NCBI GenBank assembly: GCA_032718475.1
Contig: JAUCBJ010009012.1
Span: 1-64,000, forward strand
Length of the DNA stretch: 64,000 nucleotides
Source: Nemertoderma westbladi
Taxonomy: Eukaryota > Animalia > Xenacoelomorpha
Reading direction: 5' to 3'
Both the position numbers and the translations under genes were made by a program. Positions 346 through 29,000 of this stretch are shown piece after piece; positions within the stretch are counted from its first letter, which is position 1; the number at the start of each line of letters is the position of its first letter. Under the pieces are notes generated by a model, which was given only the letters and a program-made list of their open reading frames with translations, was not told the origin of the DNA and did no database searches.

Positions 346-526
346 GGTCATTGGTCAATAAACGTGGCTCAAAGCGTTGCAAAATATTTTTTTTTTATTT
401 CTTACCGAACCTCAATATATTATATACCATTGGAATCGTCTTCTTGAGCTCTTTCCAGATCTGGCCAAAATATATAAATATACTCAAGTCTAAAAGTTTT
501 ATAGGCGAAGTAACGCTAAATGCTAT

Positions 527-830
527 CCAAGGTAGACATCCAAGGTATACATGGGTTCAAGGTATACATTTTTGTGTACCAAGGTATACATTGGTTAAAT
601 TTTCAAGGTATACGTTTTGTGTACCAAGGTATACAATTTGTGTACCAAGGTATACATTTTGTGTACCAAGGTATACATTTTGTGTACCAAGGTATACATT
701 GGTTAAATTTTCAAGGTATACGTTTTGTGTACCAATGTTAGTCTACCAAGGTATACGTGTTGTGTAGCAAGGTAGTGTGCCAAGGTATACGTGTTGTGTA
801 GCAAGGTATTCTTCGTTTGGTGTAACAAGG
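527..830. repeat. ~21-bp internal tandem repeat (CCAAGGTATACATTTTGTGTA) of the Kolobok-like element
   Basis: Visible tandem copies. Inverted GTATACCTTG copies occur at about 4810-5110. Explains ORFs 351-767 and 520-741. Confidence 0.85.
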
Positions 831-1924
831 TAAACATGGGTTCAATCTTTAAGGTATGAGATTTGTGTATCAAGGGTTACGATATTAGTGATTTTGAAAA
901 CAAGTAAATAAGGTAGGCTGTATCTGGGGTCAATATATTCAGTTCAATATTCAGAGTAAGCCTATATGTAATAGTTAAAGTTTCGGGAGACAGATGCACT
1001 GTAACTGAATAATTGATAGACGCGACAAATCGTTACAAATAAACAAATTCAATATGTTCATTAACTTATCAGAATAGTTAACTGAAGCCCCAGATAATCT
1101 GTTCGACTAGTTTGCGTGTTTCATCGCCTCTATGTTTACATGGTGGTGGGGTGGGGGTAGGGGGTCTGCTAAGCTAGTTCCTTTGAAATGCTATGTAAGC
1201 ATGCCTCTCGCGGTTTAGATTTTGGGACTGTAGCAATTTTCGACAGCCTGTTTTTCGTGGCTCTTTGAGGAAGTTTGTCCGGATTAAAATACCTCAGATG
1301 GTTCTTGTTACAGAATTTACCTTGCAGGTAATGAGAACAGTAGCACGAGGTCTTCCTTCTGGGACGGGATCCATTCTATCTGGTGAATTTGTCTCGTGTT
1401 TGGAATGAGTTTAGGTTTAGTTTAGTTAATGTTTCTGGAAGACTATGAGGGCCGAGTAACTCAAAAAATCTTGAGATTGATCTTGAAACTAACCTTGAAT
1501 CTATTTTACTAGTATTCCTATCTGAAATATTTCAAGGTCAACCTTAAGGTAGACTTCAGATTTTCCTCAAGGTAAACTTGACATTTCAAGCCGGTAACAC
1601 AAAATATCTTGACTTGAGTTGAAGTCAAGATTCGAGGTAAATTTCAAGGTAGCCATAGAGGTACCTTCAAATTTCAAGGTATTTTCAAATCAATGTTTCA
1701 GCTGTTAGCTGTAGTCTTCCGCTACCGGTACCGTAAGCGGCATTTTTGCAGATACCCCAGACCCGAAATTTCTAAATAAAACTCAGTTTATCATGAATAT
1801 AATGAATGATACTGTAGCTAGAGTTATACTGTATAGCGGCACTACTACGAGTATGTGTACCCATGACCGGGATTTTTTGATAGTAGCTAGTTTTTGCTAC
1901 TTTTTTTTAAATTTTCTATGTCAA

Positions 1925-2465
1925 ATTAGCTATAGTTTTGTAAAAAAAATGTTCTAGAACAAATATTTTTTGTTCTAGAACATTTAAAAAAATAAATTTA
2001 TTAGAAATTATTTGTTATGTTAATAAATAGTTTAATTATCTATAAACATTAATAGCTACAGTACTAATTATTTTCAAGCTAGCTAGTGATTTTACAAGTT
2101 TAGCTATCATTTAAAAAAAAATTCAGAAATTAATTGTTATGTGTAATAAATTGTTTTTTTTTAAATAATAGCTAACTGGCAAAATCACTAGCTAGCCTGA
2201 ATATTTCTAGCTATTAATGTTTATATGATAATTAAACAATTTATTACACATAACAAATAAATTCTTAAATTTTTTTTTAATGATAGCTAAACTTGGAAAA
2301 TCACTAGCAAGCCTGATAATTTGTATTTTAGATAAATTTTAGATGTTTATAGATAAATAAACTATTTAACATAATAATAACTAATTTTTAATATTTTTTT
2401 TTAATGTTCTAGAACAAAAAATATTTGTTCTGGAACATAATCTTTTTACCTAACAATAGCTATAA
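1925..2465. repeat. AT-rich foldback (long imperfect inverted repeat)
   Basis: About 2075-2156 is the reverse complement of about 2234-2315. The TGTTCTAGAACA palindrome pair at 1950-1983 is mirrored at 2405-2438. Confidence 0.75.
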
Positions 2466-3604
2466 TCTAATATTTTGAATCTAATCACATGAAAGTTTTT
2501 TTATATGATAGATCAAAGATGGGGCAACATAACTATCAGGCGAAATTTTGTGAAAATAATTCTGCACCGCTAGGTGGCGCTGCAAATTTAGGCTAAATTT
2601 TGAGGTTTGTTATAAATAGTATTAAATTTTATTAACAAATAATTTCGAAAAGTTGTCTGATAATTTTATGCAGGGTGGCTATCTAGACACCCACAGGAAG
2701 TTTCAGACAAATTGCTCAAAAATTGTAGAAGTAGTAGGGTTTTGAAGTTGACAATTTCATAAAAACAATATTTGGAGATAATCGACCTTTCATTATACAT
2801 AATGATAGTAATTTCAATAGGAATCCCTAAATGGAAATTGTTATAACTTGAAAACTAAAAGAGCTATTAAATAGCAGTTTTCAGATTTGGAAACACCATT
2901 CAATGGTGCATTATAATAGACCATAAAAAAAATCGACATATTTTTGACCAAAATGGTGTACCCCCCCCCCCCCCCCCCTTAATTGGAAATGAAATTTAGC
3001 CCAAATTCCAGACTTGGAGGCACTTAGGATTTGACTTGGATTTCGAAAGGAATTTACTTGGAAATCGGCGCTTACTTTGATGTCTGGAAGGTGGACTGAC
3101 TCAGACTATGCTTGTGCTGGTCCACTTCTCCTCTATCCTGTCAATCATTAAGTTGTATAGAATGGACTAGACTCAGCCTAAAGTTTGCGTAGTGTTAGTG
3201 TTCAGTTCATTACATTAAGGTATGGTTGTCGATGGAAGATTACACTGCTACTGTACCTTGTATTGCCAGCCTCTGACGTAAATAATATTTAGAATATGAA
3301 CTATAATAGATGAAATCCACACACATCCCATCCGCACATTATAGTTAACGTCCGTGGGCTGGTGGGCTCTGGAATAATTTAAAATCGTATTGAACTTACA
3401 AATAAATGTAGGATCACACTGTATTTATTACTTTTGAACATATTTTGAGTAATAAAGAGTAAAACACAATGTTTATGTAATTATTAATAGAATAAATATT
3501 AGTTTATTTTCATTTATTAGTTTAATTAATAATTAGACAGGGGCTAAAACTGGGCGACTAAATAAATGTTTGAAGTTTTACTGGAGACTATAAGTACTGT
3601 AGGT

Positions 3605-3818
3605 GGTCTCAGGAATTCTTAGCCCGGTGAGTATTCTTAGCCCGTGGGTATTCTTAGCCCGCAAAACAATAACGTTTATTGATTTGGTTCCCCCAATACG
3701 CCTCTGAAACCTGCTCCTTTACTAACCTGCTCCGTTACTAACTCGCAGGCTAAGAATACTCGCGGGCTAAGAATACCCGTGGGTTAAGAATACTCGCGGG
3801 CTAAGAATTCACCCAACC
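3605..3818. mobile_element. MITE with ~18-bp subterminal repeats (GTATTCTTAGCCCGCGAG)
   Basis: Inverted arms GAATTCTTAGCCCG and CGGGCTAAGAATTC. Flanks CTGTAGGT and ATGTAGGT give an 8-bp TSD with one mismatch, or a 6-bp TGTAGG TSD if the ends are TG..CA. Confidence 0.75.
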
Positions 3819-5923
3819 ATGTAGGTGTATGTTGTTTTGAGTATGGCAACTAATGTCTGGGAATAACAAAGTGTTTCCATAGGCTTCCCCTCTAACATTT
3901 CTGGTCGAGTATATCTCCAATACTTTTATCTAAGAAGATATTAATATCAGCTCTAACAAGTACAGTATTAATAAAATAATACAAAATAATAATACAAAAT
4001 TTTAAACAATTATTCAAGTTTACACCTGGATTCCAACCACACATTTACAACTGATTACGAACGACTATTCATTGTAAATTAGTGAACAGATTAATGACAA
4101 CATACTGTAAAGAAATAGAATGCTCAGTAATATCACATTGTGCGTTTTAGTCCAATACTGTATGTCCCAATCAAAATCCTAATTCCTAATTTTAGGAATT
4201 AGGAATCGAAATCCTAATTTTAGTTTAAGTACTACTGTACATTGCTCACCCTCACAACCATGATTATATTTCCCAGATACAGTATGTCACTTCGATATAC
4301 TGTATAGGCCAAACTGTTGTGGTCAGTAAACTATGTACTGCCTGTAATCTGTTTAGAAGGTGCGTGGTTTTATCGAAATTACAATTGCCAAAGTGTTTCA
4401 ACAGTGTGTTTAACGCTTTAACGTACTGTATTGAGTAGGCCTACTGTATATTATTGCAGGTATACACAATGGGATTCACTGCATAACCTAGGCAACTGCT
4501 GAAATAAACAAATACTTCTTCCATCTTTAATACTCAAGGTGAGCCTTGAAATTTCAAGTATCACCTTGACTAAGTATTGCTTTGAGTTACCCGCTTGACT
4601 GAAACTCAAGAAAATCTTAGTCAAGGTAAAACTTGAGTTTCAAGGTGACCTTGAAGTGAATTTCAAGGTCAATCTCAAGATTTTTTGAGTTACTCGGCCC
4701 AGGTTCACCCTTCAAATCGACCAGCGAAATGATCGAGAAATGGCAACTGGTTATATTATCTTTTGCGAATGATTGGAACGAATGGATTGAATGGAAATGA
4801 ATGGATTGTATTGTATACCTTGGAGTGGTTGTCCCCATTGTTTATATCGTATAGGGGCTGTTAAACGCCTATGTACCGTTTATTAATTGTTCTAAGTTGT
4901 TGTTGAAGCCTGGCCCCATTATGTATATCGTATTGGGGCTGTTAAACGCCTACCGTGTATTAATTGTATTGTATACCTTGAATACATTGTAGAAGCTTGG
5001 CGTGTTGCTGTCCAATTGTTTATCACACTGATAGGGTATACCTTGAACATTATAATATGTATAATAAGCTAAAACTGTCTACCTTGGTATAAAAATGTCT
5101 ACCTTGGAACGAACAAACTCTTTCACTTCCAAGGGATACAAATTCCAAGGGATACCGTCTTATACCAAGGTATACCAATATACTGCAGTATCATAGAAAC
5201 GGGAAGGGCAGCGACAATTTATCTTAGCCAACACAAAGGGCTCTATAGAAGTAATAAAAATTGTAAGTGCCGATATAAACCCGTTCGTTTGTAGAAAATG
5301 ACAGGCAGTCAAAGTTATGTTCCAAGGGTATACATATTTATCCAAAATCGTGTCCTACCCTCCTTAAACAGATTGTGTGGTCAAATTGCAGGAAGTAGGA
5401 GGGTCGAATAGATATAATTTGGGAAGCAGAATCAATACTCATTACAATAAATGTTTATTTGGCGGCATTCCGACACCATGTAAACAGTCTGTAGATGTTG
5501 TTTTTACACTATTTTTTTTAAGAAAAAAGTGAAATTCTATATAGTTTACTATGCTAGACGTTATTTTAAGCCATGGGTCATGTTTATGTTCCCTTTGTGA
5601 TTAAATGAAGAAGCAACGTCCACTCTATCGATTGGTATATAGTATTGGCCAAGATATTCAAGTCATATTTTTGTGTGGCAGCTTATTTCATGGGGACTAT
5701 ATTTTGCAACGCCCAAGGTAGACACCAAGGTATACATTTTTATGACTTGACTTCTTGTAGTGAAAATACAATATTAGTGTGCAACTCAGATTTTATCTAT
5801 GTTGTAGAGCTCGCTCTAAGCTTCCAAACGAGCCCTCAACCATTAAAATCGGTTGATGTAAACTGGATTTATAAGCAAAAGTGTGAATTTGCAAAAATGT
5901 GCCATCCTTACTGACCAATGACC

Positions 5924-8900
5924 CTAAACAAACATATCGGTTGTACATTTACCTAAACAAACCTATCGGTTGTACATTTACCTAAACAAACATATCGGTA
6001 GTACATTTACCTAAACAAACATATCGGTAGTACATTTACCTAAACAAACATATCGGTTGTACATTTACCTAAACAAACATATCGGTTGTACATTTACCTA
6101 AACAAACATATCGGTAGTACATTTACCTAAACAAACATATCTGTAGTACATTTACCTAAACAAACATATCGGTAGTACATTTACCTAAACAAACATATCG
6201 GTTGTACATTTACCTAAACAAACATATCGGTTGTACATTTACCTAAACAAACATATCGGTAGTACATTTACCTAAACAAACATATCGGTAGTACATTTAC
6301 CTAAACAAACATATCGGTAGTACATTTACCTAAACAAACATATCGGTAGTACATTTACCTAAACAAACATATCGGTAGTACATTTACCTAAACAAACATA
6401 TCGGTAGTACATTTACCTAAACAAACATATCGGTAGTACATTTACCTAAACAAACATATCGGTAGTACATTTACGTAAACAAACATATCGGTAGTACATT
6501 TACCTAAACAAACATATCGGTAGTACATTTACCTAAACAAACATATCGGTAGTACATTTACCTAAACAAACATATCTGTAGTACATTTACCTAAACAAAC
6601 ATATCGGTAGTACATTTACCTAAACAAACCTATCGGTTGTACATTTACCTAAACAAACATATCGGTTGTACATTTACCTAAACAAACATATCGGTAGTAC
6701 ATTTACCTAAACAAACATATCGGTAGTATATTTACCTAAACAAACATATCGGTAGTACATTTACCTAAACAAACATATCTGTAGTACATTTACCTAAACA
6801 AACATATCGGTTGTACATTTACCTAAACAAACATATCGGTTGTACATTTACCTAAACAAACATATCGGTTGTACATTTACCTAAACAAACATATCGGTTG
6901 TACATTTACCTAAACAAACCTATCGGTAGTACATTTACCTAAACAAACATATCGGTAGTACATTTACCTAAACAAACATATCTGTAGTACATTTACCTAA
7001 ACAAACATATCGGTTGTACATTTACCTAAACAAACCTATCGGTTGTACATTTACCTAAACAAACATATCGGTTGTACATTTACGTAAACAAACATATCTG
7101 TAGTACATTTACCTAAACAAACATATCGGTAGTACATTTACCTAAACAAACATATCGGTTGTACATTTACCTAAACAAACATATCGGTAGTACATTTACC
7201 TAAACAAACATATCGGTATCGGTTGTACATTTACCTAAACAAACATATCGGTAGTACATTTACCTAAACAAACATATCGGTAGTACATTTACCTAAACAA
7301 ACATATCGGTAGTACATTTACCTAAACAAACATATCGGTTGTACATTTACCTAAACAAACCTATCGGTAGTACATTTACCTAAACAAACATATCGGTTGT
7401 ACATTTACCTAAACAAACATATCGGTAGTACATTTACCTAAACAAACATATCGGTAGTACATTTACCTAAACAAACATATCGGTAGTACATTTACCTAAA
7501 CAAACATATCGGTTGTACATTTACCTAAACAAACCTATCGGTTGTACATTTACCTAAACAAACATATCGGTTGTACATTTACCTAAACAAACCTATCGGT
7601 AGTACATTTACCTAAACAAACATATCGGTTGTACATTTACCTAAACAAACATATCGGTTGTACATTTACCTAAACAAACATATCGGTAGTACATTTACCT
7701 AAACAAACATATCGGTATCGGTTGTACATTTACCTAAACAAACATATCGGTAGTACATTTACCTAAACAAACATATCGGTAGTACATTTACCTAAACAAA
7801 CATATCGGTAGTACATTTACCTAAACAAACATATCGGTTGTACATTTACCTAAACAAACCTATCGGTAGTACATTTACCTAAACAAACATATCGGTTGTA
7901 CATTTACCTAAACAAACATATCGGTAGTACATTTACCTAAACAAACATATCGGTAGTACATTTACCTAAACAAACATATCGGTAGTACATTTACCTAAAC
8001 AAACATATCGGTTGTACATTTACCTAAACAAACCTATCGGTTGTACATTTACCTAAACAAACATATCGGTTGTACATTTACCTAAACAAACCTATCGGTA
8101 GTACATTTACCTAAACAAACATATCGGTTGTACATTTACCTAAACAAACATATCAGTAGTACATTTACCTAAACAAACATATCGGTAGTACATTTACCTA
8201 AACAAACATATCGGTAGTACATTAACCTAAACAAACATATCGGTTGTACATTTACCTAAACAAACATATCGGTAGTACATTTACCTAAACAAACATATCG
8301 GTATCGGTTGTACATTTACCTAAACAAACATATCGGTAGTACATTTACCTAAACAAACATATCGGTAGTACATTTACCTAAACAAACATATCGGATCGGT
8401 AGTACATTTACCTAAACAAACATATCGGTAGTACATTTACCTAAACAAACATATCGGTAGTACATTTACCTAAACAAACATATCGGTAGTACATTTACCT
8501 AAACAAACATATCGGATCGGTAGTACATTTACCTAAACAAACATATCGGTAGTACATTTACCTAAACAAACATATCTGTAGTACATTTACGTAAACAAAC
8601 ATATCGGTAGTACATTTACCTAAACAAACATATCGGTTGTACATTTACCTAAACAAACATATCGGTTGTACATTTACCTAAACAAACCTATCGGTTGTAC
8701 ATTTACCTAAACAAACATATCAGTAGTACATTTACCTAAACAAACATATCGGTTGTACATTTACCTAAACAAACATATCGGTTGTACATTTACCTAAACA
8801 AACATATCGGTAGTACATTTACCTAAACAAACATATCGGTAGTACATTTACCTAAACAAACATATCGGTAGTACATTTACCTAAACAAACATATCGGTAG

Positions 8901-11900
8901 TACATTTACGTAAACAAACATATCGGTAGTACATTTACCTAAACAAACATATCGGTAGTACATTTACCTAAACAAACATATCGGTAGTACATTTACCTAA
9001 ACAAACATATCTGTAGTACATTTACCTAAACAAACATATCGGTAGTACATTTACCTAAACAAACCTATCGGTTGTACATTTACCTAAACAAACATATCGG
9101 TTGTACATTTACCTAAACAAACATATCGGTAGTACATTTACCTAAACAAACATATCGGTAGTATATTTACCTAAACAAACATATCGGTAGTACATTTACC
9201 TAAACAAACATATCTGTAGTACATTTACCTAAACAAACATATCGGTTGTACATTTACCTAAACAAACATATCGGTTGTACATTTACCTAAACAAACATAT
9301 CGGTTGTACATTTACCTAAACAAACATATCGGTTGTACATTTACCTAAACAAACCTATCGGTAGTACATTTACCTAAACAAACATATCGGTAGTACATTT
9401 ACCTAAACAAACATATCTGTAGTACATTTACCTAAACAAACATATCGGTTGTACATTTACCTAAACAAACCTATCGGTTGTACATTTACCTAAACAAACA
9501 TATCGGTTGTACATTTACGTAAACAAACATATCTGTAGTACATTTACCTAAACAAACATATCGGTAGTACATTTACCTAAACAAACATATCGGTTGTACA
9601 TTTACCTAAACAAACATATCGGTAGTACATTTACCTAAACAAACATATCGGTATCGGTTGTACATTTACCTAAACAAACATATCGGTAGTACATTTACCT
9701 AAACAAACATATCGGTAGTACATTTACCTAAACAAACATATCGGTAGTACATTTACCTAAACAAACATATCGGTTGTACATTTACCTAAACAAACCTATC
9801 GGTAGTACATTTACCTAAACAAACATATCGGTTGTACATTTACCTAAACAAACATATCGGTAGTACATTTACCTAAACAAACATATCGGTAGTACATTTA
9901 CCTAAACAAACATATCGGTAGTACATTTACCTAAACAAACATATCGGTTGTACATTTACCTAAACAAACCTATCGGTTGTACATTTACCTAAACAAACAT
10001 ATCGGTTGTACATTTACCTAAACAAACCTATCGGTAGTACATTTACCTAAACAAACATATCGGTTGTACATTTACCTAAACAAACATATCGGTTGTACAT
10101 TTACCTAAACAAACATATCGGTAGTACATTTACCTAAACAAACATATCGGTATCGGTTGTACATTTACCTAAACAAACATATCGGTAGTACATTTACCTA
10201 AACAAACATATCGGTAGTACATTTACCTAAACAAACATATCGGTAGTACATTTACCTAAACAAACATATCGGTTGTACATTTACCTAAACAAACCTATCG
10301 GTAGTACATTTACCTAAACAAACATATCGGTTGTACATTTACCTAAACAAACATATCGGTAGTACATTTACCTAAACAAACATATCGGTAGTACATTTAC
10401 CTAAACAAACATATCGGTAGTACATTTACCTAAACAAACATATCGGTTGTACATTTACCTAAACAAACCTATCGGTTGTACATTTACCTAAACAAACATA
10501 TCGGTTGTACATTTACCTAAACAAACATATCGGTAGTACATTTACCTAAACAAACATATCGGTTGTACATTTACCTAAACAAACATATCGGTAGTACATT
10601 TACCTAAACAAACATATCGGTAGTACATTTACCTAAACAAACATATCGGTAGTACATTTACCTAAACAAACATATCGGTTGTACATTTACCTAAACAAAC
10701 ATATCGGTAGTACATTTACCTAAACAAACATATCGGTATCGGTTGTACATTTACCTAAACAAACATATCGGTAGTACATTTACCTAAACAAACATATCGG
10801 TAGTACATTTACCTAAACAAACATATCGGATCGGTAGTACATTTACCTAAACAAACATATCGGTAGTACATTTACCTAAACAAACATATCGGTAGTACAT
10901 TTACCTAAACAAACATATCGGTAGTACATTTACCTAAACAAACATATCGGATCGGTAGTACATTTACCTAAACAAACATATCGGTAGTACATTTACCTAA
11001 ACAAACATATCTGTAGTACATTTACGTAAACAAACATATCGGTAGTACATTTACCTAAACAAACATATCGGTTGTACATTTACCTAAACAAACATATCGG
11101 TTGTACATTTACCTAAACAAACCTATCGGTTGTACATTTACCTAAACAAACATATCAGTAGTACATTTACCTAAACAAACATATCGGTTGTACATTTACC
11201 TAAACAAACATATCGGTTGTACATTTACCTAAACAAACATATCGGTTGTACATTTACCTAAACAAACCTATCGGTTGTACATTTACCTAAACAAACATAT
11301 CAGTAGTACATTTACCTAAACAAACATATCGGTTGTACATTTACCTAAACAAACATATCGGTTGTACATTTACCTAAACAAACATATCGGTTGTACATTT
11401 ACCTAAACAAACCTATCGGTTGTACATTTACCTAAACAAACATATCAGTAGTACATTTACCTAAACAAACATATCGGTAGTACATTTACCTAAACAAACA
11501 TATCGGTTGTACATTTACCTAAACAAACATATCGGTAGTACATTTACCTAAACAAACATATCGGTAGTACATTTACCTAAACAAACATATCGGTTGTACA
11601 TTTACCTAAACAAACATATCGGTTGTACATTTACCTAAACAAACATATCGGTTGTACATTTACCTAAACAAACATATCGGTTGTACATTTACCTAAACAA
11701 ACATATCGGTTGTACATTTACCTAAACAAACCTATCGGTTGTACATTTACCTAAACAAACATATCAGTAGTACATTTACCTAAACAAACATATCGGTTGT
11801 ACATTTACCTAAACAAACATATCGGTTGTACATTTACCTAAACAAACATATCGGTTGTACATTTACCTAAAGAAACCTATCGGTTGTACATTTACCTAAA

Positions 11901-14900
11901 CAAACATATCAGTAGTACATTTACCTAAACAAACATATCGGTAGTACATTTACCTAAACAAACATATCGGTTGTACATTTACCTAAACAAACATATCGGT
12001 AGTACATTTACCTAAACAAACATATCGGTAGTACATTTACCTAAACAAACATATCGGTTGTACATTTACCTAAACAAACATATCGGTTGTACATTTACCT
12101 AAACAAACATATCGGTTGTACATTTACCTAAACAAACATATCGGTTGTACATTTACCTAAACAAACCTATCGGTTGTACATTTACCTAAACAAACATATC
12201 GGTAGTACATTTACCTAAACAAACATATCGGTTGTACATTTACCTAAACAAACATATCGGTTGTACATTTACCTAAACAAACCTATCGGTTGTACATTTA
12301 CCTAAACAAACATATCAGTAGTACATTTACCTAAACAAACATATCGGTAGTACATTTACCTAAACAAACATATCGGTTGTACATTTACCTAAACAAACAT
12401 ATCGGTAGTACATTTACCTAAACAAACATATCGGTAGTACATTTACCTAAACAAACATATCGGTTGTACATTTACCTAAACAAACATATCGGTTGTACAT
12501 TTACCTAAACAAACATATCGGTTGTACATTTACCTAAACAAACATATCGGTTGTACATTTACCTAAACAAACATATCGGTTGTACATTTACCTAAACAAA
12601 CCTATCGGTTGTACATTTACCTAAACAAACATATCAGTAGTACATTTACCTAAACAAACATATCGGTTGTACATTTACCTAAACAAACATATCGGTTGTA
12701 CATTTACCTAAACAAACATATCGGTTGTACATTTACCTAAAGAAACCTATCGGTTGTACATTTACCTAAACAAACATATCAGTAGTACATTTACCTAAAC
12801 AAACATATCGGTAGTACATTTACCTAAACAAACATATCGGTTGTACATTTACCTAAACAAACATATCGGTAGTACATTTACCTAAACAAACATATCGGTA
12901 GTACATTTACCTAAACAAACATATCGGTTGTACATTTACCTAAACAAACATATCGGTTGTACATTTACCTAAACAAACATATCGGTTGTACATTTACCTA
13001 AACAAACATATCGGTTGTACATTTACCTAAACAAACCTATCGGTTGTACATTTACCTAAACAAACATATCGGTAGTACATTTACCTAAACAAACATATCG
13101 GTAGTACATTTACCTAAACAAACATATCGGTTGTACATTTACCTAAACAAACCTATCGGTTGTACATTTACCTAAACAAACATATCGGTAGTACATTTAC
13201 CTAAACAAACATATCGGTTGTACATTTACCTAAACAAACATATCGGTAGTACATTTACCTAAACAAACATATCGGTAGTACATTTACCTAAACAAACATA
13301 TCGGTAGTACATTTACCTAAACAAACATATCGGTAGTACATTTACCTAAACAAACATATCGGTTGTACATTTACCTAAACAAACATATCTGTAGTACATT
13401 TACCTAAACAATCATATCGGTAGTACATTTACCTAAACAAACATATCGGTTGTACATTTACCTAAACAAACATATCGGTTGTACATTTACCTAAACAAAC
13501 ATATCGGTAGTACATTTACCTAAACAAACATATCGGTTGTACATTTACCTAAACAAACATATCGGTTGTACATTTACCTAAACAAACATATCGGATCGGT
13601 AGTACATTTACCTAAACAAACATATCGGTTGTACATTTACCTAAACAAACCTATCGGTTGTACATTTACCTAAACAAACATATCGGTAGTACATTTACCT
13701 AAACAAACATATCGGTAGTACATTTACCTAAACAAACATATCTGTAGTACATTTACCTAAACAAACATATCGGTTGTACATTTACCTAAACAAACCTATC
13801 GGTTGTACATTTACCTAAACAAACATATCGGTTGTACATTTACGTAAACAAACATATCTGTAGTACATTTACCTAAACAAACATATCGGTAGTACATTTA
13901 CCTAAACAAACATATCGGTTGTACATTTACCTAAACAAACATATCGGTAGTACATTTACCTAAACAAACATATCGGTATCGGTTGTACATTTACCTAAAC
14001 AAACATATCGGTAGTACATTTACCTAAACAAACATATCGGTAGTACATTTACCTAAACAAACATATCGGTAGTACATTTACCTAAACAAACATATCGGTT
14101 GTACATTTACCTAAACAAACCTATCGGTAGTACATTTACCTAAACAAACATATCGGTAGTACATTTACCTAAACAAACATATCGGTTGTACATTTACCTA
14201 AACAAACATATCGGTAGTACATTTACCTAAACAAACATATCGGTAGTACATTTACCTAAACAAACATATCGGTAGTACATTTACCTAAACAAACATATCG
14301 GTTGTACATTTACCTAAACAAACATATCGGTAGTCCGTAGTACATTTACCTAAACAAACATATCGGTTGTACATTTACCTAAACAAACATATCGGTAGTA
14401 CATTTACCTAAACAAACATATCGGTTGTACATTTACCTAAACAAACATATCGGTTGTACATTTACCTAAACAATCATATCGGTTGTACATTTACCTAAAC
14501 AAACATATCGGTAGTACATTTACCTAAACAAACATATCGGTTGTACATTTACCTAAACAAACATATCGGTTGTACATTTACCTAAACAAACATATCGGTT
14601 GTACATTTACCTAAACAATCATATCGGTTGTACATTTACCTAAACAAACATATCGGTAGTACATTTACCTAAACAAACATATCGGTAGTCCGTAGTACAT
14701 TTACCTAAACAAACATATCGGTTGTACATTTACCTAAACAAACATATCGGTAGTACATTTACCTAAACAAACATATCGGTTGTACATTTACCTAAACAAA
14801 CATATCGGTAGTACATTTACCTAAACAAACATATCGGATCGGTAGTACATTTACCTAAACAAACATATCGGTTGTACATTTACCTAAACAAACATATCGG

Positions 14901-17900
14901 TAGTACATTTACCTAAACAAACATATCGGTAGTACATTTACCTAAACAAACATATCGGTTGTACATTTACCTAAACAAACATATCGGTAGTACATTTACC
15001 TAAACAAACCTATCGGTAGTACATTTACCTAAACAAACATATCGGTTGTACATTTACCTAAACAAACATATCGGTAGTACATTTACCTAAACAAACATAT
15101 CGGTAGTACATTTACCTAAACAAACATATCGGTAGTCCGTAGTACATTTACCTAAACAAACATATCGGTAGTACATTTACCTAAACAAACATATCGGTAG
15201 TACATTTACCTAAACAAACATATCGGTAGTACATTTACCTAAACAAACATATCGGTAGTACATTTACCTAAACAAACATATCGGTAGTCCGTAGTACATT
15301 TACCTAAACAAACATATCGGTAGTACATTTACCTAAACAAACATATCGGTAGTACATTTACCTAAACAAACATATCGGTAGTACATTTACCTAAACAAAC
15401 ATATCGGTAGTACATTTACCTAAACAAACATATCGGTAGTACATTTACCTAAACAAACATATCGGTAGTACATTTACCTAAACAAACATATCGGTAGTAC
15501 ATTTACCTAAACAAACATATCGGTAGTACATTTACCTAAACAAACATATCGGTTGTACATTTACCTAAACAAACATATCGGTAGTACATTTACCTAAACA
15601 AACATATCGGTAGTACATTTACCTAAACAAACATATCGGTAGTACATTTACCTAAACAAACATATCGGTTGTACATTTACCTAAACAAACATATCGGTAG
15701 TACATTTACCTAAACAAACATATCGGTAGTACATTTACCTAAACAAACATATCGGTAGTACATTTACCTAAACAAACATATCGGTAGTACATTTACCTAA
15801 ACAAACATATCGGTAGTACATTTACCTAAACAAACATATCGGTAGTACATTTACCTAAACAAACATATCGGTTGTACATTTACCTAAACAAACATATCGG
15901 TTGTACATTTACCTAAACAAACATATCGGTAGTACATTTACCTAAACAAACATATCGGTAGTCCGTAGTACATTTACCTAAACAAACATATCGGTTGTAC
16001 ATTTACCTAAACAAACATATCGGTAGTACATTTACCTAAACAAACATATCGGTTGTACATTTACCTAAACAAACATATCGGTAGTACATTTACCTAAACA
16101 AACATATCGGATCGGTAGTACATTTACCTAAACAAACATATCGGTTGTACATTTACCTAAACAAACATATCGGTAGTACATTTACCTAAACAAACATATC
16201 GGTAGTACATTTACCTAAACAAACATATCGGTTGTACATTTACCTAAACAAACATATCGGTAGTACATTTACCTAAACAAACATATCGGTAGTACATTTA
16301 CCTAAACAAACATATCGGTTGTACATTTACCTAAACAAACATATCGGTAGTACATTTACCTAAACAAACATATCGGTAGTACATTTACCTAAACAAACAT
16401 ATCGGTAGTCCGTAGTACATTTACCTAAACAAACATATCGGTAGTACATTTACCTAAACAAACATATCGGTAGTACATTTACCTAAACAAACATATCGGT
16501 AGTACATTTACCTAAACAAACATATCGGTAGTACATTTACCTAAACAAACATATCGGTAGTCCGTAGTACATTTACCTAAACAAACATATCGGTAGTACA
16601 TTTACCTAAACAAACATATCGGTAGTACATTTACCTAAACAAACATATCGGTAGTACATTTACCTAAACAAACATATCGGTAGTACATTTACCTAAACAA
16701 ACATATCGGTAGTACATTTACCTAAACAAACATATCGGTAGTACATTTACCTAAACAAACATATCGGTTGTACATTTACCTAAACAAACATATCGGTTGT
16801 ACATTTACCTAAACAAACATATCGGTTGTACATTTACCTAAACAAACATATCGGTAGTACATTTACCTAAACAAACATATCGTTATCGGTTGTACATTTA
16901 CCTAAACAAACATATCGGTAGTACATTTACCTAAACAAACATATCGGTTGTACATTTACCTAAACAAACATATCGGTAGTACATTTACCTAAACAAACAT
17001 ATCGTTATCGGTTGTACATTTACCTAAACAAACATATCGGTAGTACATTTACCTAAACAAACATATCGGTTGTACATTTACCTAAACAAACATATCGGTT
17101 GTACATTTACCTAAACAAACATATCGGTAGTACATTTACCTAAACAAACATATCGGTTGTACATTTACCTAAACAAACATATCGGTTGTACATTTACCTA
17201 AACAAACATATCGGTATCGGTTGTACATTTACCTAAACAAACATATCGGTAGTACATTTACCTAAACAAACATATCGGTTGTACATTTACCTAAACAAAC
17301 ATATCGGTTGTACATTTACCTAAACAAACATATCGGTTGTACATTTACCTAAACAAACATATCGGTAGTACATTTACCTAAACAAACATATCGTTATCGG
17401 TTGTACATTTACCTAAACAAACATATCGGTAGTACATTTACCTAAACAAACATATCGGTTGTACATTTACCTAAACAAACATATCGGTATCGGTTGTACA
17501 TTTACCTAAACAAACATATCGGTTGTACATTTACCTAAACAAACATATCGGTATCGGTTGTACATTTACCTAAACAAACATATCGGTTGTACATTTACCT
17601 AAACAAACATATCGGTAGTACATTTACCTAAACAAACATATCGGTAGTACATTTACCTAAACAAACATATCGGTTGTACATTTACCTAAACAAACATATC
17701 GGTAGTACATTTACCTAAACAAACATATCGGTAGTACATTTACCTAAACAAACATATCGGTAGTCCGTAGTACATTTACCTAAACAAACATATCGGTAGT
17801 ACATTTACCTAAACAAACATATCGGTAGTACATTTACCTAAACAAACATATCGGTAGTACATTTACCTAAACAAACATATCGGTTGTACATTTACCTAAA

Positions 17901-20900
17901 CAAACATATCGGTAGTACATTTACCTAAACAAACAAAGCGGTTGTACATTTACCTAAACAAACATATCGGTTGTACATTTACCTAAACAAACCTATCGGT
18001 TGTACATTTACCTAAACAAACATATCGGTTGTACATTTACCTAAACAAACATATCGGTTGTACATTTACCTAAACAAACATATCGGTAGTACATTTACCT
18101 AAACAAACAAAGCGGTTGTACATTTACCTAAACAAACATATCAGTAGTACATTTACCTAAACAAACATATCGGTAGTACATTTACCTAAACAAACATATC
18201 GGTAGTACATTTACCTAAACAAACATATCGGTAGTACATTTACCTAAACAAACATATCGGTAGTCCGTAGTACATTTACCTAAACAAACATATCGGTAGT
18301 ACATTTACCTAAACAAACATATCGGTTGTACATTTACCTAAACAAACATATCGGTAGTACATTTACCTAAACAAACATATCGGTAGTACATTTACCTAAA
18401 CAAACATATCGGTTGTACATTTACCTAAACAAACATATCGGTAGTACATTTACCTAAACAAACAAAGCGGTTGTACATTTACCTAAACAAACATATCGGT
18501 TGTACATTTACCTAAACAAACCTATCGGTTGTACATTTACCTAAACAAACATATCGGTTGTACATTTACCTAAACAAACATATCGGTTGTACATTTACCT
18601 AAACAAACATATCGGTAGTACATTTACCTAAACAAACAAAGCGGTTGTACATTTACCTAAACAAACATATCAGTAGTACATTTACCTAAACAAACATATC
18701 GGTAGTACATTTACCTAAACAAACATATCGGTTGTACATTTACCTAAACAAACATATCGGTAGTACATTTACCTAAACAAACAAAGCGGTTGTACATTTA
18801 CCTAAACAAACATATCGGTTGTACATTTACCTAAACAAACCTATCGGTTGTACATTTACCTAAACAAACATATCGGTTGTACATTTACCTAAACAAACAT
18901 ATCGGTTGTACATTTACCTAAACAAACATATCGGTAGTACATTTACCTAAACAAACAAAGCGGTTGTACATTTACCTAAACAAACATATCAGTAGTACAT
19001 TTACCTAAACAAACATATCGGTAGTACATTTACCTAAACAAACATATCGGTTGTACATTTACCTAAACAAACATATCGGTAGTACATTTACCTAAACAAA
19101 CATATCGTTATCGGTTGTACATTTACCTAAACAAACATATCGGTAGTACATTTACCTAAACAAACATATCGGTTGTACATTTACCTAAACAAACATATCG
19201 GTTGTACATTTACCTAAACAAACATATCGGTAGTACATTTACCTAAACAAACATATCGGTTGTACATTTACCTAAACAAACATATCGGTTGTACATTTAC
19301 CTAAACAAACATATCGGTATCGGTTGTACATTTACCTAAACAAACATATCGGTAGTACATTTACCTAAACAAACATATCGGTTGTACATTTACCTAAACA
19401 AACATATCGGTAGTACATTTACCTAAACAAACAAAGCGGTTGTACATTTACCTAAACAAACATATCGGTTGTACATTTACCTAAACAAACCTATCGGTTG
19501 TACATTTACCTAAACAAACATATCGGTTGTACATTTACCTAAACAAACATATCGGTTGTACATTTACCTAAACAAACATATCGGTAGTACATTTACCTAA
19601 ACAAACATAGCGGTTGTACATTTACCTAAACAAACATATCGGTAGTACATTTACCTAAACAAACATATCGGTAGTACATTTACCTAAACAAACATATCGG
19701 TAGTACATTTACCTAAACAAACATATCGGTAGTACATTTACCTAAACAAACATATCGGTAGTCCGTAGTACATTTACCTAAACAAACATATCGGTAGTAC
19801 ATTTACCTAAACAAACATATCGGTTGTACATTTACCTAAACAAACATATCGGTAGTACATTTACCTAAACAAACATATCGGTAGTACATTTACCTAAACA
19901 AACATATCGGTTGTACATTTACCTAAACAAACATATCGGTAGTACATTTACCTAAACAAACAAAGCGGTTGTACATTTACCTAAACAAACATATCGGTTG
20001 TACATTTACCTAAACAAACCTATCGGTTGTACATTTACCTAAACAAACATATCGGTAGTACATTTACCTAAACAAACATATCGGTAGTACATTTACCTAA
20101 ACAAACATATCGGTAGTACATTTACCTAAACAAACATATCGGTAGTACATTTACCTAAACAAACATATCGGTAGTACATTTACCTAAACAAACATATCGG
20201 TAGTACATTTACCTAAACAAACATATCGGTAGTACATTTACCTAAACAAACATATCGGTAGTACATTTACCTAAACAAACATATCGGTTGTACATTTACC
20301 TAAACAAACATATCGGTAGTACATTTACCTAAACAAACATATCGGTAGTACATTTACCTAAACAAACATATCGGTAGTACATTTACCTAAACAAACATAT
20401 CGGTTGTACATTTACCTAAACAAACATATCGGTAGTACATTTACCTAAACAAACATATCGGTAGTACATTTACCTAAACAAACATATCGGTAGTACATTT
20501 ACCTAAACAAACATATCGGTAGTACATTTACCTAAACAAACATATCGGTAGTACATTTACCTAAACAAACATATCGGTAGTACATTTACCTAAACAAACA
20601 TATCGGTTGTACATTTACCTAAACAATCATATCGGTTGTACATTTACCTAAACAAACATATCGGTAGTACATTTACCTAAACAAACATATCGGTAGTCCG
20701 TAGTACATTTACCTAAACAAACATATCGGTTGTACATTTACCTAAACAAACATATCGGTAGTACATTTACCTAAACAAACATATCGGTTGTACATTTACC
20801 TAAACAAACATATCGGTAGTACATTTACCTAAACAAACATATCGGATCGGTAGTACATTTACCTAAACAAACATATCGGTTGTACATTTACCTAAACAAA

Positions 20901-23900
20901 CATATCGGTAGTACATTTACCTAAACAAACATATCGGTAGTACATTTACCTAAACAAACATATCGGTTGTACATTTACCTAAACAAACATATCGGTAGTA
21001 CATTTACCTAAACAAACATATCGGTAGTACATTTACCTAAACAAACATATCGGTTGTACATTTACCTAAACAAACATATCGGTAGTACATTTACCTAAAC
21101 AAACATATCGGTAGTACATTTACCTAAACAAACATATCGGTAGTCCGTAGTACATTTACCTAAACAAACATATCGGTAGTACATTTACCTAAACAAACAT
21201 ATCGGTAGTACATTTACCTAAACAAACATATCGGTAGTACATTTACCTAAACAAACATATCGGTAGTACATTTACCTAAACAAACATATCGGTAGTCCGT
21301 AGTACATTTACCTAAACAAACATATCGGTAGTACATTTACCTAAACAAACATATCGGTAGTACATTTACCTAAACAAACATATCGGTAGTCGTAGTACAT
21401 TTACCTAAACAAACATATCGGTAGTACATTTACCTAAACAAACATATCGGTAGTACATTTACCTAAACAAACATATCGGTAGTACATTTACCTAAACAAA
21501 CATATCGGTATCGTAGTACATTTACCTAAACAAACATATCGGTAGTACATTTACCTAAACAAACATATCGGTAGTACATTTACCTAAACAAACATATCGG
21601 TAGTACATTTACCTAAACAAACATATCGGTAGTACATTTACCTAAACAAACATATCGGTAGTACATTTACCTAAACAAACATATCGGTAGTACATTTACC
21701 TAAACAAACATATCGGTAGTACATTTACCTAAACAAACATATCGGTAGTACATTTACCTAAACAAACATATCGGTAGTACATTTACCTAAACAAACATAT
21801 CGGTAGTACATTTACCTAAACAAACATATCGGTAGTACATTTACCTAAACAAACATATCGGTAGTACATTTACCTAAACAAACATATCGGTAGTACATTT
21901 ACCTAAACAAACATATCGGTAGTCCGTAGTACATTTACCTAAACAAACATATCGGTAGTACATTTACCTAAACAAACATATCGGTAGTACATTTACCTAA
22001 ACAAACATATCGGTAGTCCGTAGTACATTTACCTAAACAAACATATCGGTAGTACATTTACCTAAACAAACATATCGGTAGTACATTTACCTAAACAAAC
22101 ATATCGGTAGTACATTTACCTAAACAAACATATCGGTAGTCCGTAGTACATTTACCTAAACAAACATATCGGTAGTACATTTACCTAAACAAACATATCG
22201 GTAGTACATTTACCTAAACAAACATATCGGTAGTACATTTACCTAAACAAACATATCGGTAGTACATTTACCTAAACAAACATATCGGTAGTCCGTAGTA
22301 CATTTACCTAAACAAACATATCGGTAGTACATTTACCTAAACAAACATATCGGTAGTACATTTACCTAAACAAACATATCGGTAGTCCGTAGTACATTTA
22401 CCTAAACAAACATATCGGTAGTACATTTACCTAAACAAACATATCGGTAGTACATTTACCTAAACAAACATATCGGTAGTACATTTACCTAAACAAACAT
22501 ATCGGTAGTACATTTACCTAAACAAACATATCGGTAGTCCGTAGTACATTTACCTAAACAAACATATCGGTAGTACATTTACCTAAACAAACATATCGGT
22601 AGTACATTTACCTAAACAAACATATCGGTTGTACATTTACCTAAACAAACATATCGGTTGTACATTTACCTAAACAAACATATCGGTTGTACATTTACCT
22701 AAACAAACATATCGGTAGTACATTTACCTAAACAAACATATCGGTAGTACATTTACCTAAACAAACATATCGGTAGTACATTTACCTAAACAAACATATC
22801 GGTAGTACATTTACCTAAACAAACATATCGGTAGTACATTTACCTAAACAAACATATCGGTAGTACATTTACCTAAACAAACATATCGGTTGTACATTTA
22901 CCTAAACAAACATATCGGTTGTACATTTACCTAAACAAACATATCGGTTGTACATTTACCTAAACAAACATATCGGTAGTACATTTACCTAAACAAACAT
23001 ATCGTTATCGGTTGTACATTTACCTAAACAAACATATCGGTAGTACATTTACCTAAACAAACATATCGGTTGTACATTTACCTAAACAAACATATCGGTA
23101 GTACATTTACCTAAACAAACATATCGTTATCGGTTGTACATTTACCTAAACAAACATATCGGTAGTACATTTACCTAAACAAACATATCGGTTGTACATT
23201 TACCTAAACAAACATATCGGTTGTACATTTACCTAAACAAACATATCGGTTGTACATTTACCTAAACAAACATATCGGTAGTACATTTACCTAAACAAAC
23301 ATATCGGTTGTACATTTACCTAAACAAACATATCGGTTGTACATTTACCTAAACAAACATATCGGTATCGGTTGTACATTTACCTAAACAAACATATCGG
23401 TAGTACATTTACCTAAACAAACATATCGGTTGTACATTTACCTAAACAAACATATCGGTTGTACATTTACCTAAACAAACATATCGGTTGTACATTTACC
23501 TAAACAAACATATCGGTAGTACATTTACCTAAACAAACATATCGTTATCGGTTGTACATTTACCTAAACAAACATATCGGTAGTACATTTACCTAAACAA
23601 ACATATCGGTTGTACATTTACCTAAACAAACATATCGGTATCGGTTGTACATTTACCTAAACAAACATATCGGTTGTACATTTACCTAAACAAACATATC
23701 GGTATCGGTTGTACATTTACCTAAACAAACATATCGGTTGTACATTTACCTAAACAAACATATCGGTAGTACATTTACCTAAACAAACATATCGGTAGTA
23801 CATTTACCTAAACAAACATATCGGTTGTACATTTACCTAAACAAACATATCGGTAGTACATTTACCTAAACAAACATATCGGTAGTACATTTACCTAAAC

Positions 23901-25725
23901 AAACATATCGGTAGTCCGTAGTACATTTACCTAAACAAACATATCGGTAGTACATTTACCTAAACAAACATATCGGTAGTACATTTACCTAAACAAACAT
24001 ATCGGTAGTACATTTACCTAAACAAACATATCGGTTGTACATTTACCTAAACAAACATATCGGTAGTACATTTACCTAAACAAACAAAGCGGTTGTACAT
24101 TTACCTAAACAAACATATCGGTTGTACATTTACCTAAACAAACCTATCGGTTGTACATTTACCTAAACAAACATATCGGTTGTACATTTACCTAAACAAA
24201 CATATCGGTTGTACATTTACCTAAACAAACATATCGGTAGTACATTTACCTAAACAAACAAAGCGGTTGTACATTTACCTAAACAAACATATCAGTAGTA
24301 CATTTACCTAAACAAACATATCGGTAGTACATTTACCTAAACAAACATATCGGTAGTACATTTACCTAAACAAACATATCGGTAGTACATTTACCTAAAC
24401 AAACATATCGGTAGTCCGTAGTACATTTACCTAAACAAACATATCGGTAGTACATTTACCTAAACAAACATATCGGTTGTACATTTACCTAAACAAACAT
24501 ATCGGTAGTACATTTACCTAAACAAACATATCGGTAGTACATTTACCTAAACAAACATATCGGTTGTACATTTACCTAAACAAACATATCGGTAGTACAT
24601 TTACCTAAACAAACAAAGCGGTTGTACATTTACCTAAACAAACATATCGGTTGTACATTTACCTAAACAAACCTATCGGTTGTACATTTACCTAAACAAA
24701 CATATCGGTTGTACATTTACCTAAACAAACATATCGGTTGTACATTTACCTAAACAAACATATCGGTAGTACATTTACCTAAACAAACAAAGCGGTTGTA
24801 CATTTACCTAAACAAACATATCAGTAGTACATTTACCTAAACAAACATATCGGTAGTACATTTACCTAAACAAACATATCGGTTGTACATTTACCTAAAC
24901 AAACATATCGGTAGTACATTTACCTAAACAAACAAAGCGGTTGTACATTTACCTAAACAAACATATCGGTTGTACATTTACCTAAACAAACCTATCGGTT
25001 GTACATTTACCTAAACAAACATATCGGTTGTACATTTACCTAAACAAACATATCGGTTGTACATTTACCTAAACAAACATATCGGTAGTACATTTACCTA
25101 AACAAACAAAGCGGTTGTACATTTACCTAAACAAACATATCAGTAGTACATTTACCTAAACAAACATATCGGTAGTACATTTACCTAAACAAACATATCG
25201 GTTGTACATTTACCTAAACAAACATATCGGTAGTACATTTACCTAAACAAACATATCGTTATCGGTTGTACATTTACCTAAACAAACATATCGGTAGTAC
25301 ATTTACCTAAACAAACATATCGGTTGTACATTTACCTAAACAAACATATCGGTTGTACATTTACCTAAACAAACATATCGGTAGTACATTTACCTAAACA
25401 AACATATCGGTTGTACATTTACCTAAACAAACATATCGGTTGTACATTTACCTAAACAAACATATCGGTATCGGTTGTACATTTACCTAAACAAACATAT
25501 CGGTAGTACATTTACCTAAACAAACATATCGGTTGTACATTTACCTAAACAAACATATCGGTTGTACATTTACCTAAACAAACATATCGGTTGTACATTT
25601 ACCTAAACAAACATATCGGTAGTACATTTACCTAAACAAACATATCGGTTGTACATTTACCTAAACAAACATATCGGTAGTACATTTACCTAAACAAACA
25701 TATCGGTTGTACATTTACCTAAACA
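5924..25725. repeat. 29-bp satellite, ~19.8 kb (about 680 units), derived from the aconitase intron-4/exon-5 junction
   Basis: Highly homogeneous tandem unit. Its minus strand reads ATGTTTGTTTAG GTAAATGTACWACCGAT. Recurrent variants form kb-scale duplicated blocks. Confidence 0.98.
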
Positions 25726-25869
25726 CCTCCAACATGTGTAACGTAACCCATTGGAACCAGCCTATAAGTTGTAGGTTTGAAGTGATGGCGATTGAAATAA
25801 TATGGGTAGGATGTAGTTTATAGTTGACATATATTTAATCTCGCAGAGGCTGCATGTATTGAGTCTAAC

Positions 25870-26052
25870 CTTTTACTTTAATAAGGACAACGGCGTCTAT
25901 AATATCTTTACCATCCCAAACTGGGAAAGGGTCTAACAACTGTAGTCTGTCGCTGGTTGGAGACACGTCTACCGACTTCGAGCTGCCCTCGGCGGGGGGG
26001 TGTTGGTAAGTATCCTCTCCTGGGTCGAAACCCAAACTCGGTAAGTGCTCAC
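25870..26052 (-). CDS. ACO2: Mitochondrial aconitase, exon 4 (missed by the ORF track)
   Basis: Translates (G)[60 protein letters not shown](G). Acceptor ttacttAG at 26053-26054, donor GTTAGA at 25869. 183 nt, phase 1 to phase 1. Confidence 0.93.
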
Positions 26053-26054
26053 CT

Positions 26055-29000
26055 AAGTAATGAAAGGGTGGAAATGGTGAGTAATGGAAAGGTGGAAAGA
26101 GTAAGTGATTAATGGAAGGGTGGAAATGGTAAGTGAGTAATGGAAGGGTGGGAATGGTAAGTGAGTAATGGAAAGGTGGAATTGGTAAGTGAGTAATGGA
26201 AAGGTGGAAATGGTAATTTATTAATGGAAGGGTAGAAATGGTAAGTGAGAAAAGGAAGGGTGGAACTTGTAAGGGAGTAATGGAAGGGTGGAACTTGTAA
26301 GTGAGTAATGGAAGGGTGGAAATGGTAAGTGAGTAATGGAAAGGTGGAAATGGTAATTTATTAATGGAAGGGTAGAAATGGTAAGTGAGAAAAGGAAGGG
26401 TGGAACTTGTAAGGGAGTAATGGAAGGGTGGAACTTGTAAGTGAGTAATGGAAGGGTGGAAATGGTAAGTGAGTAATAGAAGGGTGGAACTTGTAAGGGA
26501 GTAATGGAAGGGTGGGAATGGTAAGTGAGTAATGGAAAGGTGGAATTGGTAAGTGAGTAATGGAAAGGTGGAAATGGTAATTTATTAATGGAAGGGTAGA
26601 AATGGTAAGTGAGAAAAGGAAGGGTGGAACTTGTAAGGGAGTAATGGAAGGGTGGAACTTGTAAGTGAGTAATGGAAGGGTGGAAATGGTAAGTGAGTAA
26701 TAGAAGGGTGGAACTTGTAAGGGAGTAATGGAAGGGTGGGAATGGTAAGTGAGTAATGGAAAGGTGGAATTGGTAAGTGAGTAATGGAAAGGTGGAAATG
26801 GTAATTTATTAATGGAAGGGTAGAAATGGTAAGTGAGAAAAGGAAGGGTGGAACTTGTAAGGGAGTAATGGAAGGGTGGAACTTGTAAGTGAGTAATGGA
26901 AGGGTGGAAATGGTAAGTGAGTAATGGAAAGGTGGAATTGGTAAGTGAGTAATGGAAAGGTGGAATTGGTAAGTAGTAATGGAAAGGTGGAAATGGTAAT
27001 TTATTAATGGAAGGGTAGAAATGGTAAGTGAGAAAAGGAAGGGTGGAACTTGTAAGGGAGTAATGGAAGGGTGGAACTTGTAAGTGAGTAATGGAAGGGT
27101 GGAAATGGTAAGTGAGTAATGGAAGCGTGGAAATGATAAGTGAGTAATGGAAGGGTGGAACTTGAACGTGAGTAATGGGAGGGTGGAAAAGGTAAGTGAG
27201 TAATGGAAGGGTGGAAATGGTAAGTGAGTAATAGAAGGGTGGAAATTGTAAGTGAGTAATGGAAGGGTGGAACTTGTAAGGGAGTAATGGAATGGTGGAA
27301 AAGGTAAGTGAGTAATGGAAGGGTGGAACTTGAACATGAGTAATGGGAGGGTGGAAAAGGTAAGTGAGTAATGGAAAGGTGGAATTGGTAAGTGGTAATG
27401 GAAAGGTGGAAATGGTAATTTATTAATGGAAGGGTAGAAATGGTAAGTGAGAAAAGGAAGGGTGGAACTTGTAAGGGAGTAATGGAAGGGTGGAACTTGT
27501 AAGTGAGTAATGGAAGGGTGGAAATGGTAAGTGAGAAAAGGAAGGGTGGAACTTGTAAGGGAGTAATGGAAGGGTGGAACTTGTAAGTGAGTAATGGAAA
27601 GGTGGAAATGGTAATTTATTAATGGAAGGGTAGAAATGGTAAGTGAGAAAAGGAAGGGTGGAACTTGTAAGGGAGTAATGGAAGGGTGGAACTTGTAAGT
27701 GAGTAATGGAAGGGTGGAAATGGTAAGTGAGTAATAGAAGGGTGGAACTTGTAAGGGAGTAATGGAAGGGTGGGAATGGTAAGTGAGTAATGGAAAGGTG
27801 GAATTGGTAAGTGAGTAATGGAAAGGTGGAAATGGTAATTTATTAATGGAAGGGTAGAAATGGTAAGTGAGAAAAGGAAGGGTGGAACTTGTAAGGGAGT
27901 AATGGAAGGGTGGAACTTGTAAGTGAGTAATGGAAGGGTGGAAATGGTAAGTGAGTAATGGAAAGGTGGAATTGGTAAGTGAGTAATGGAAAGGTGGAAT
28001 TGGTAAGTAGTAATGGAAAGGTGGAAATGGTAATTTATTAATGGAAGGGTAGAAATGGTAAGTGAGAAAAGGAAGGGTGGAACTTGTAAGGGAGTAATGG
28101 AAGGGTGGAACTTGTAAGTGAGTAATGGAAGGGTGGAAATGGTAAGTGAGTAATGGAAGCGTGGAAATGATAAGTGAGTAATGGAAGGGTGGAACTTGAA
28201 CGTGAGTAATGGGAGGGTGGAAAAGGTAAGTGAGTAATGGAAGGGTGGAAATGGTAAGTGAGTAATAGAAGGGTGGAAATTGTAAGTGAGTAATGGAAGG
28301 GTGGAACTTGTAAGGGAGTAATGGAATGGTGGAAAAGGTAAGTGAGTAATGGAAGGGTGGAACTTGAACGTGAGTAATGGGAGGGTGGAAAAGGTAAGTG
28401 AGTAATGGAAAGGTGGAATTGGTAAGTAGTAATGGAAAGGTGGAAATGGTAATTTATTAATGGAAGGGTAGAAATGGTAAGTGAGAAAAGGAAGGGTGGA
28501 ACTTGTAAGGGAGTAATGGAAGGGTGGAACTTGTAAGTGAGTAATGGAAGGGTGGAAATGGTAAGTGAGAAAAGGAAGGGTGGAACTTGTAAGGGAGTAA
28601 TGGAAGGGTGGAACTTGTAAGTGAGTAATGGAAAGGTGGAAATGGTAATTTATTAATGGAAGGGTAGAAATGGTAAGTGAGAAAAGGAAGGGTGGAACTT
28701 GTAAGGGAGTAATGGAAGGGTGGAACTTGTAAGTGAGTAATGGAAGGGTGGAAATGGTAAGTGAGTAATAGAAGGGTGGAACTTGTAAGGGAGTAATGGA
28801 AGGGTGGGAATGGTAAGTGAGTAATGGAAAGGTGGAATTGGTAAGTGAGTAATGGAAAGGTGGAAATGGTAATTTATTAATGGAAGGGTAGAAATGGTAA
28901 GTGAGAAAAGGAAGGGTGGAACTTGTAAGGGAGTAATGGAAGGGTGGAACTTGTAAGTGAGTAATGGAAGGGTGGAAATGGTAAGTGAGTAATGGAAAGG

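Follow-up and report, generated by a model that had tools for sequence, protein, structure and literature searches.

The fourth intron of the mitochondrial aconitase gene (ACO2) of Nemertoderma westbladi contains a real and extreme mirage array, in which the end of an intron and the start of the following exon are repeated head to tail, and which provides a good test system for the choice of splice sites. The preliminary description of this DNA had proposed that each repeat unit is a ratchet point through which the intron is removed stepwise by recursive splicing. Recursion is possible but is unsupported so far. The evidence comes from the window, which is the whole 64,000-nt stretch of DNA analysed, and from contigs of sequencing runs designated X1 to X5.

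ACO2 is encoded on the minus strand, with four coding exons within the window:

36291..37034, minus strand: exon 1 (coding part, ATG to K248), an open frame with a GT donor; Pfam Aconitase, E=1.6e-53
33958..34593, minus strand: exon 2, with AG/GT ends and an open frame; Pfam Aconitase, E=4.6e-64
33412..33610, minus strand: exon 3, with AG/GT ends; the end of this exon is found as the loose end of the spliced X4 contig
25870..26052, minus strand: exon 4, ending ...LIKVK G (phase 1), spanned in full by the spliced X4 contig

Exons 1–4 give 587 open codons, the last of which form LIKVK-G, and exon 4 ends with AAAG (25870) in phase 1. The possibility that the gene is a pseudogene is rejected on the basis of these 587 open codons, which include the cluster motifs. 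The named entries among the best 120 homologues are animal ACO2, and in 112 of the 120 the sequence continues after exon 4 with KCTTDHIS. The closest proteins are 84% and 80% identical locally in two protein searches, and the best identity over exons 1–4 is ~75% among the 238 homologues fetched. A six-frame motif search of the 64-kb window found no exon 5 or later ACO2 motifs. Since the KCTTDHIS continuation is absent from the window, exon 5 must lie to the left of position 1 and intron 4 must be longer than 25.8 kb.

The gene is intact through exon 4, in line with the preliminary description, and a correctly spliced product is found in one of the runs. A contig of run X4 (sample S3, study P3; 1,885 nt, depth 1,474) matches the window only at 25868-26053; beyond this stretch, one of its loose ends leads into the end of exon 3 and the other into KCTTDHISAA. 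Although X4 is recorded as 'DNA?', both introns are cleanly absent from the contig, implying that it is derived from RNA. The contig is exon 3, exon 4 and exon 5 correctly joined, so correct splicing occurs in at least one sample, and regular mRNA is made in S3. The A>C SNP at 25889 is common to X4 and sample S2, and array contigs are present in the latter. Over 25645-26110, X4 gives one record with no unit sequence; contigs drop rare forms, so this record does not assess mis-splicing.

The visible part of intron 4 consists of a short unique segment followed by the array, which is interrupted near the window edge:

25719..25869, minus strand: unique 5' part of intron 4, 151 nt, with the real donor and the first AG (25720-25719); the same DNA is present in X1 and X2
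5924..25718 (repeat tract 5923-25725), minus strand: intron 4 mirage array, 671 units with a period of 29 nt; the start of exon 5 is read from the loose end of the X4 contig
346..5923, no strand assigned: 5.58-kb non-autonomous DNA-transposon-like insertion splitting the array, with terminal inverted repeats starting GGTCATTGGTCA and a 4-nt target duplication, CTAA
1..341, minus strand: continuation of the array, with 11 complete units and a further one truncated at the window edge

Counting both sides of the insertion, the array has at least 683 units and occupies ~20 kb. Each unit is made up of the first 17 nt of exon 5 and a 12-nt acceptor tail. The 17 exon-side letters match the true start of exon 5 as given by the loose end of the X4 contig, and the tail aligns 12/12 with the first acceptor after a 5-nt gap, those 5 nt being missing from the unit. 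Judged by these alignments, the unit copies the junction between intron 4 and exon 5 of ACO2 itself, and the array, combining the end of intron 4 with the start of exon 5, therefore belongs to the ‘mirage’ minisatellites, whose unit spans an intron–exon boundary of the host gene. The 151-nt spacer is probably the ancestral short intron 4. A link to intron gain by tandem duplication of AGGT-containing sequence, which the preliminary description had drawn, does not hold. In that mode of gain, as outlined in the available text of PMC3265369, the 5' end of the new intron copies the start of the downstream exon and its 3' end copies the end of the upstream exon. The real donor of intron 4 is AAG|GTTAGA (25869), so that the intron starts with GTTAGA, and the sequence that recurs in the unit tail is the end of the intron itself, not that of exon 4, implying that the array duplicates a pre-existing acceptor. 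A gain of the Rogers type is accordingly rejected.

The array is young and homogeneous. Its two main unit forms differ only at position 11, with TAC in 308 and AAC in 210 of the 672 pieces of a minus-strand split, and 19 of the 29 columns are invariant among 617 standard-length units. A block of 79 units is duplicated exactly, and this block copy together with the transposon insertion points to fast turnover. The block copy and the few variant sites are also what length instability and concerted turnover would leave, although short contigs cannot give allele lengths. In X1, the depth of one unit contig over that of the single-copy contig is ~528, compared with 312 such words in the window, which is a rough hint of more units beyond the window and not a copy number. 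Selection on the splice dinucleotides is rejected, since 7 of 617 units differ in the acceptor G and conservation is no higher at the splice letters than elsewhere in the unit. Synonymous variants are apparently in excess in the exon-derived part (three of six substitution types), but these are too few to mean anything. An assembly artefact is likewise rejected, because unit and spacer contigs are also found in run X2, which belongs to a different study from X1. X2 holds a contig joining the spacer to exon 4 and many unit contigs (352 records), and the spacer contig of X1 extends 23 nt into the first unit, beyond the branching point expected of an array-free allele. A loose end leading from a unit into exon 5 was not found in any DNA contig among the records listed for the TAC form in X1–X4 and for the AAC form in X1, X2, X3 and X5; a spacer contig with a 30-nt overlap did appear in X1 in the same search.

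The right end of the insertion at 346-5923 borders on different sequence in X1, X2, X3 and X5, as expected for a mobile element, and the insertion contains no ORF longer than 144 aa. Inverted repeats nested inside it (1449-1493 with 4656-4700; 1942-2445) suggest that it contains further elements, and a shorter derivative, with 5238 joined to 5904, is present in X1, X2 and X3. The part of the window beyond ACO2 also holds repetitive and mobile DNA. Positions 46429-64000 are occupied by a young BEL/Pao LTR retrotransposon, with LTRs 100% identical over the visible 292 nt and, at 49777-57744, a gag-pol frame of 2,655 aa that is intact. Inside it, at 59362-63630 on the plus strand, three consecutive in-frame ORFs (424, 422 and 574 aa) are separated by single TAG stops and have no Pfam match; they may represent read-through or a decaying extra gene. 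An intron-less ORF of 865 aa at 40964-43561 (plus strand), with a Cys-rich C-terminus and no Pfam match, presumably resembles a transposon-borne gene. A third minisatellite at 44625-45859 has 63/68-nt units and higher-order periods of 131 and 194, with no host exon identified.

The AG|GT form that had been described for the tandem units is borne out throughout the array. All 671 units start with GT, 670 of them with GTAAAT, and 664 end with AG, so that AG and GT are juxtaposed and use of a unit would recreate a 5' splice site. When exon 4 is joined to a unit, AAAG|GTAAAT results, also as had been described, and this site has 8/11 matches to the U1 consensus, while the four real donors of the gene have 6, 7, 8 and 7 (7/11 for intron 4). 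These scores are counts of matches out of 11 to the consensus and not MaxEnt-type scores. The internal unit-unit donor, TAG|GTAAAT, which would be the downstream donor of a cryptic exon, equals the regenerated one with 8/11. A stop at the place predicted by GKCTTDMFV-stop is the commonest outcome: 609 of the 671 possible exon 4-unit joins reach a stop after 9 codons, as in GKCTTDMFV*, and all 671 stop within 21 codons. The stop is the unit-ending TAG, which doubles as the acceptor of the next unit.

The heptamer TACTACC had been read as a branch point, and this part of the description fails. It is found in only 335 of the 671 units, with TACAACC in another 283, and belongs to the exon 5 codons TGT ACT ACC (Cys-Thr-Thr), its sole mismatch to TACTAAC falling at the branch adenosine. 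TACTAC (25676-25682, minus strand; in 335 units) is the perfect complement of the U2 branch-recognition hexamer without the bulged A, and it may be speculated that such units might capture U2 and yet be unable to branch. By branch-point rules taken from other animals, neither of the two main unit forms contains a yUnAy or nUnAy motif, and the 36 nUnAy matches in the whole 19.8-kb array are all in minor unit variants. The probability of a unit without nUnAy is ~0.11-0.12 in shuffles; the lack is thus not statistically unusual (P ~0.11) and need not be selected. It would follow from a duplication that took just 12 intron bases. Motifs of the yUnAy or nUnAy type lie within 61 nt of each acceptor of introns 1-3 and of the first AG in intron 4, whereas none is found at the internal unit AG that was examined. 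Branch-like motifs precede the first AG at -21, -26 and -47, but its pyrimidine tract is poor (8/17) and broken by GGAGG. As far as sequence can tell, a functional acceptor with branch point and pyrimidine tract is thus lacking in the main units and only weakly present at the first AG.

The preceding intron has an array of its own:

26056..33387, minus strand: intron 3 array, ~262 units of 28 nt that form a mirage of the junction between intron 3 and exon 4, from which 8 nt, TAG|GTGAG, are deleted

Exon 4 starts with a donor-like GTGAGC, and the intron 3 units have an in-register 8-mer match to the start of exon 4 (P ~2e-4). No YAG is present in this 7.3-kb array, all 93 AGs on the sense strand being AAGT. 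Two consecutive introns have thus expanded from their own acceptors, one losing the AG|GT and the other keeping it. Since the intron 3 array reaches 7.3 kb without any YAG, such arrays can grow in this gene without any ratchet, and the AG|GT-less mirage provides a natural control for the array of intron 4. Read antisense to ACO2, on the plus strand, the array of intron 3 carries 122 GGTAAG donor-like motifs.

Mirages were described in amphioxus as head-to-tail repeats of an intron's 3' end and the 5' part of the next exon, with units of 10-160 bp, in the genes for globin BflGb6, Adh3, troponin C and PGBD5. Many units keep AG/GT and regular splicing is reported to be unaffected, according to the available parts of PMC3087553 and PMC3902484. 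The edge units diverge and escape homogenisation (PMC3087553, available text). The ACO2 array has the same design of intron end plus exon start. It differs from the amphioxus mirages, as far as these sources go, in its size (at least 683 units and 20 kb, compared with 3-6 units in BflGb6, Adh3 copy numbers being outside the comparison), in an exon part that opens with a full donor motif to give AG|GTAAAT units, and in affecting two consecutive introns, one with AG|GT deleted. In the human CBS 844ins68 allele, an acceptor is similarly duplicated with part of its exon, the distal acceptor is used and the mRNA is normal (PMC1802585, in part). That case has two copies, with G runs between the sites reported to promote distal use, while ACO2 has hundreds of copies of a unit without G runs. 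Identical splice sites in tandem are also found in the 37-bp VNTR of human F7 intron 7, where the most upstream of the identical donors is used, and in the related donor minisatellites of 6-16, CBS intron 13, LAMIN B2 and PDGF (PMC1557585, in part). The copies in minisatellites of this type are mostly silent; there it is the donor that recurs and the first copy is the real one, but in ACO2 it is the acceptor, and only the last copy can be the real one.

Ratchet points and RS-exons share the juxtaposed AG|GT with the ACO2 units (PMC8605326, PMC6224609 and PMC8184009, as far as available). The true exon 5 is itself RS-exon-like, since the exon 4-5 junction reads AAG|GTAAAT. The ratchet points known so far depend on a defined cryptic exon and on a donor that is stronger than the one competing with it (available text of PMC8605326), and the EJC (exon junction complex) reportedly represses regenerated donors in human and fly (PMC6224609 and PMC8184009, in part). 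The known points, as presented in these sources, are single and conserved with strong acceptors and a defined cryptic exon, while the ACO2 units are young repeats without a branch motif. No report of a repeat array acting as serial ratchet points, or of a mirage of this size, was found in the literature covered, which consisted mainly of titles and the openings of abstracts. The kind of structure is already known; what differs here is the scale, the core metabolic gene, the AG|GT in every unit and the paired AG-less array.

On balance, the array is probably a minisatellite formed by tandem duplication of the junction, in which the ~680 AG|GT copies are silent decoys and the intron is removed in one step. 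The duplicated piece would be too short to include a branch point, so that the internal AGs would recruit U2 poorly and would have no real exon behind them, and the real acceptor would win through its downstream exon and perhaps also through its upstream sequence. Rare slips would meet a stop within 21 codons and would probably be degraded, or be rescued through the regenerated donor as a side effect. The array would grow and turn over by unequal exchange and would have no selected function. One-step removal is favoured because neither a branch motif nor a real exon accompanies the internal AGs, and because of the precedents of the mirages, CBS 844ins68 and the EJC. Some observations fit it less well. 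A mature contig cannot separate one-step from stepwise removal, and X4 represents a third sample with the spliced contig only, whose own allele may be array-free. The real acceptor of exon 5 lies outside the window and, if it is merely the last unit, it too would be without a consensus branch point. The first AG, 151 nt from the donor and with branch-like motifs, would be the natural choice under intron definition. This last point leads to the best form of the recursion idea, a single ratchet step at the first AG, which we consider unlikely. More broadly, one or a few ratchet steps, in which the first AG (25720-25719) is spliced, AAG|GTAAAT is regenerated and the array is then skipped to exon 5, are given a similarly low probability. 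The branch-like motifs at the first AG, absent from the internal units, and the regenerated donor with its 8/11 matches against 7/11 for the real one argue for such a step. Short-intron recognition is plausible, given that introns 3 and 4 have only short unique parts, and the use of the most upstream donor in F7 would favour the regenerated donor over the internal ones (PMC1557585, available text). The poor, GGAGG-interrupted pyrimidine tract of the first AG counts against it, as does the repression by the EJC of regenerated and nearby downstream donors (PMC6224609 and PMC8184009, as far as available). Because the real exon 5 also begins with GTAAAT, the donor recreated by the final join has to stay silent, except if exon 5 is the terminal exon.

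The least likely account, and a very doubtful one, is that of the preliminary description, in which units throughout the array are ratchet points for removal in many steps with a by-product subject to nonsense-mediated decay (NMD). Almost every unit has the required ends, each use would regenerate the same donor, every un-rescued product would carry an early stop, and the process would be self-terminating if exon 5 is the last exon. The two main units, however, have no consensus branch point; the competing donors here are equal, while known points need a cryptic exon and a winning donor (PMC8605326, in part); the splice letters are conserved no more than the other letters of the unit; and the intron 3 array has expanded to its full length without a YAG. 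It is improbable, though less so, that there is no choice among identical acceptors at all, either because the acceptor of exon 5 has its own distinct upstream sequence or because the expressed allele has a short array or none. The divergence of mirage edge units (PMC3087553, available text), the first unit's acceptor, which differs from the consensus tail by 5 nt, and the origin of the spliced contig from the sample represented by X4 alone are consistent with this, but the X1 spacer contig that enters the first unit by 23 nt and the richness of X2 in unit contigs are not what an array-free allele would give. Such an acceptor or allele is compatible with one-step removal past silent decoys and would only remove the puzzle. 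A giant array might be tolerated in an essential gene because exon 5 starts with a donor motif, so that each acceptor used would regenerate AAG|GTAAAT. A single duplication would then have created a self-correcting recursive ladder, and the neighbouring array would have survived by the opposite route, deletion of its AG|GT; we regard this as a minor possibility.

Studies of how one acceptor is chosen among identical ones usually deal with two to a few dozen copies, whereas at least 683 near-identical AG|GT are present here in one intron of a housekeeping gene. The ACO2 arrays are a ready natural test of scanning, exon definition, the need for a branch point and recursive rescue, and reads across an exon 4-unit junction are unambiguous despite the repetitive array. 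If the self-correcting ladder is true, it would provide a mechanism for the birth of ratchet points, and giant mirages would be predicted only at exons starting with GT or after loss of the AG. Recursion itself, if true, would tie the expansion of minisatellites to the way in which ratchet points originate; if it is not true, the intron 4 array is an extreme but ordinary mirage.
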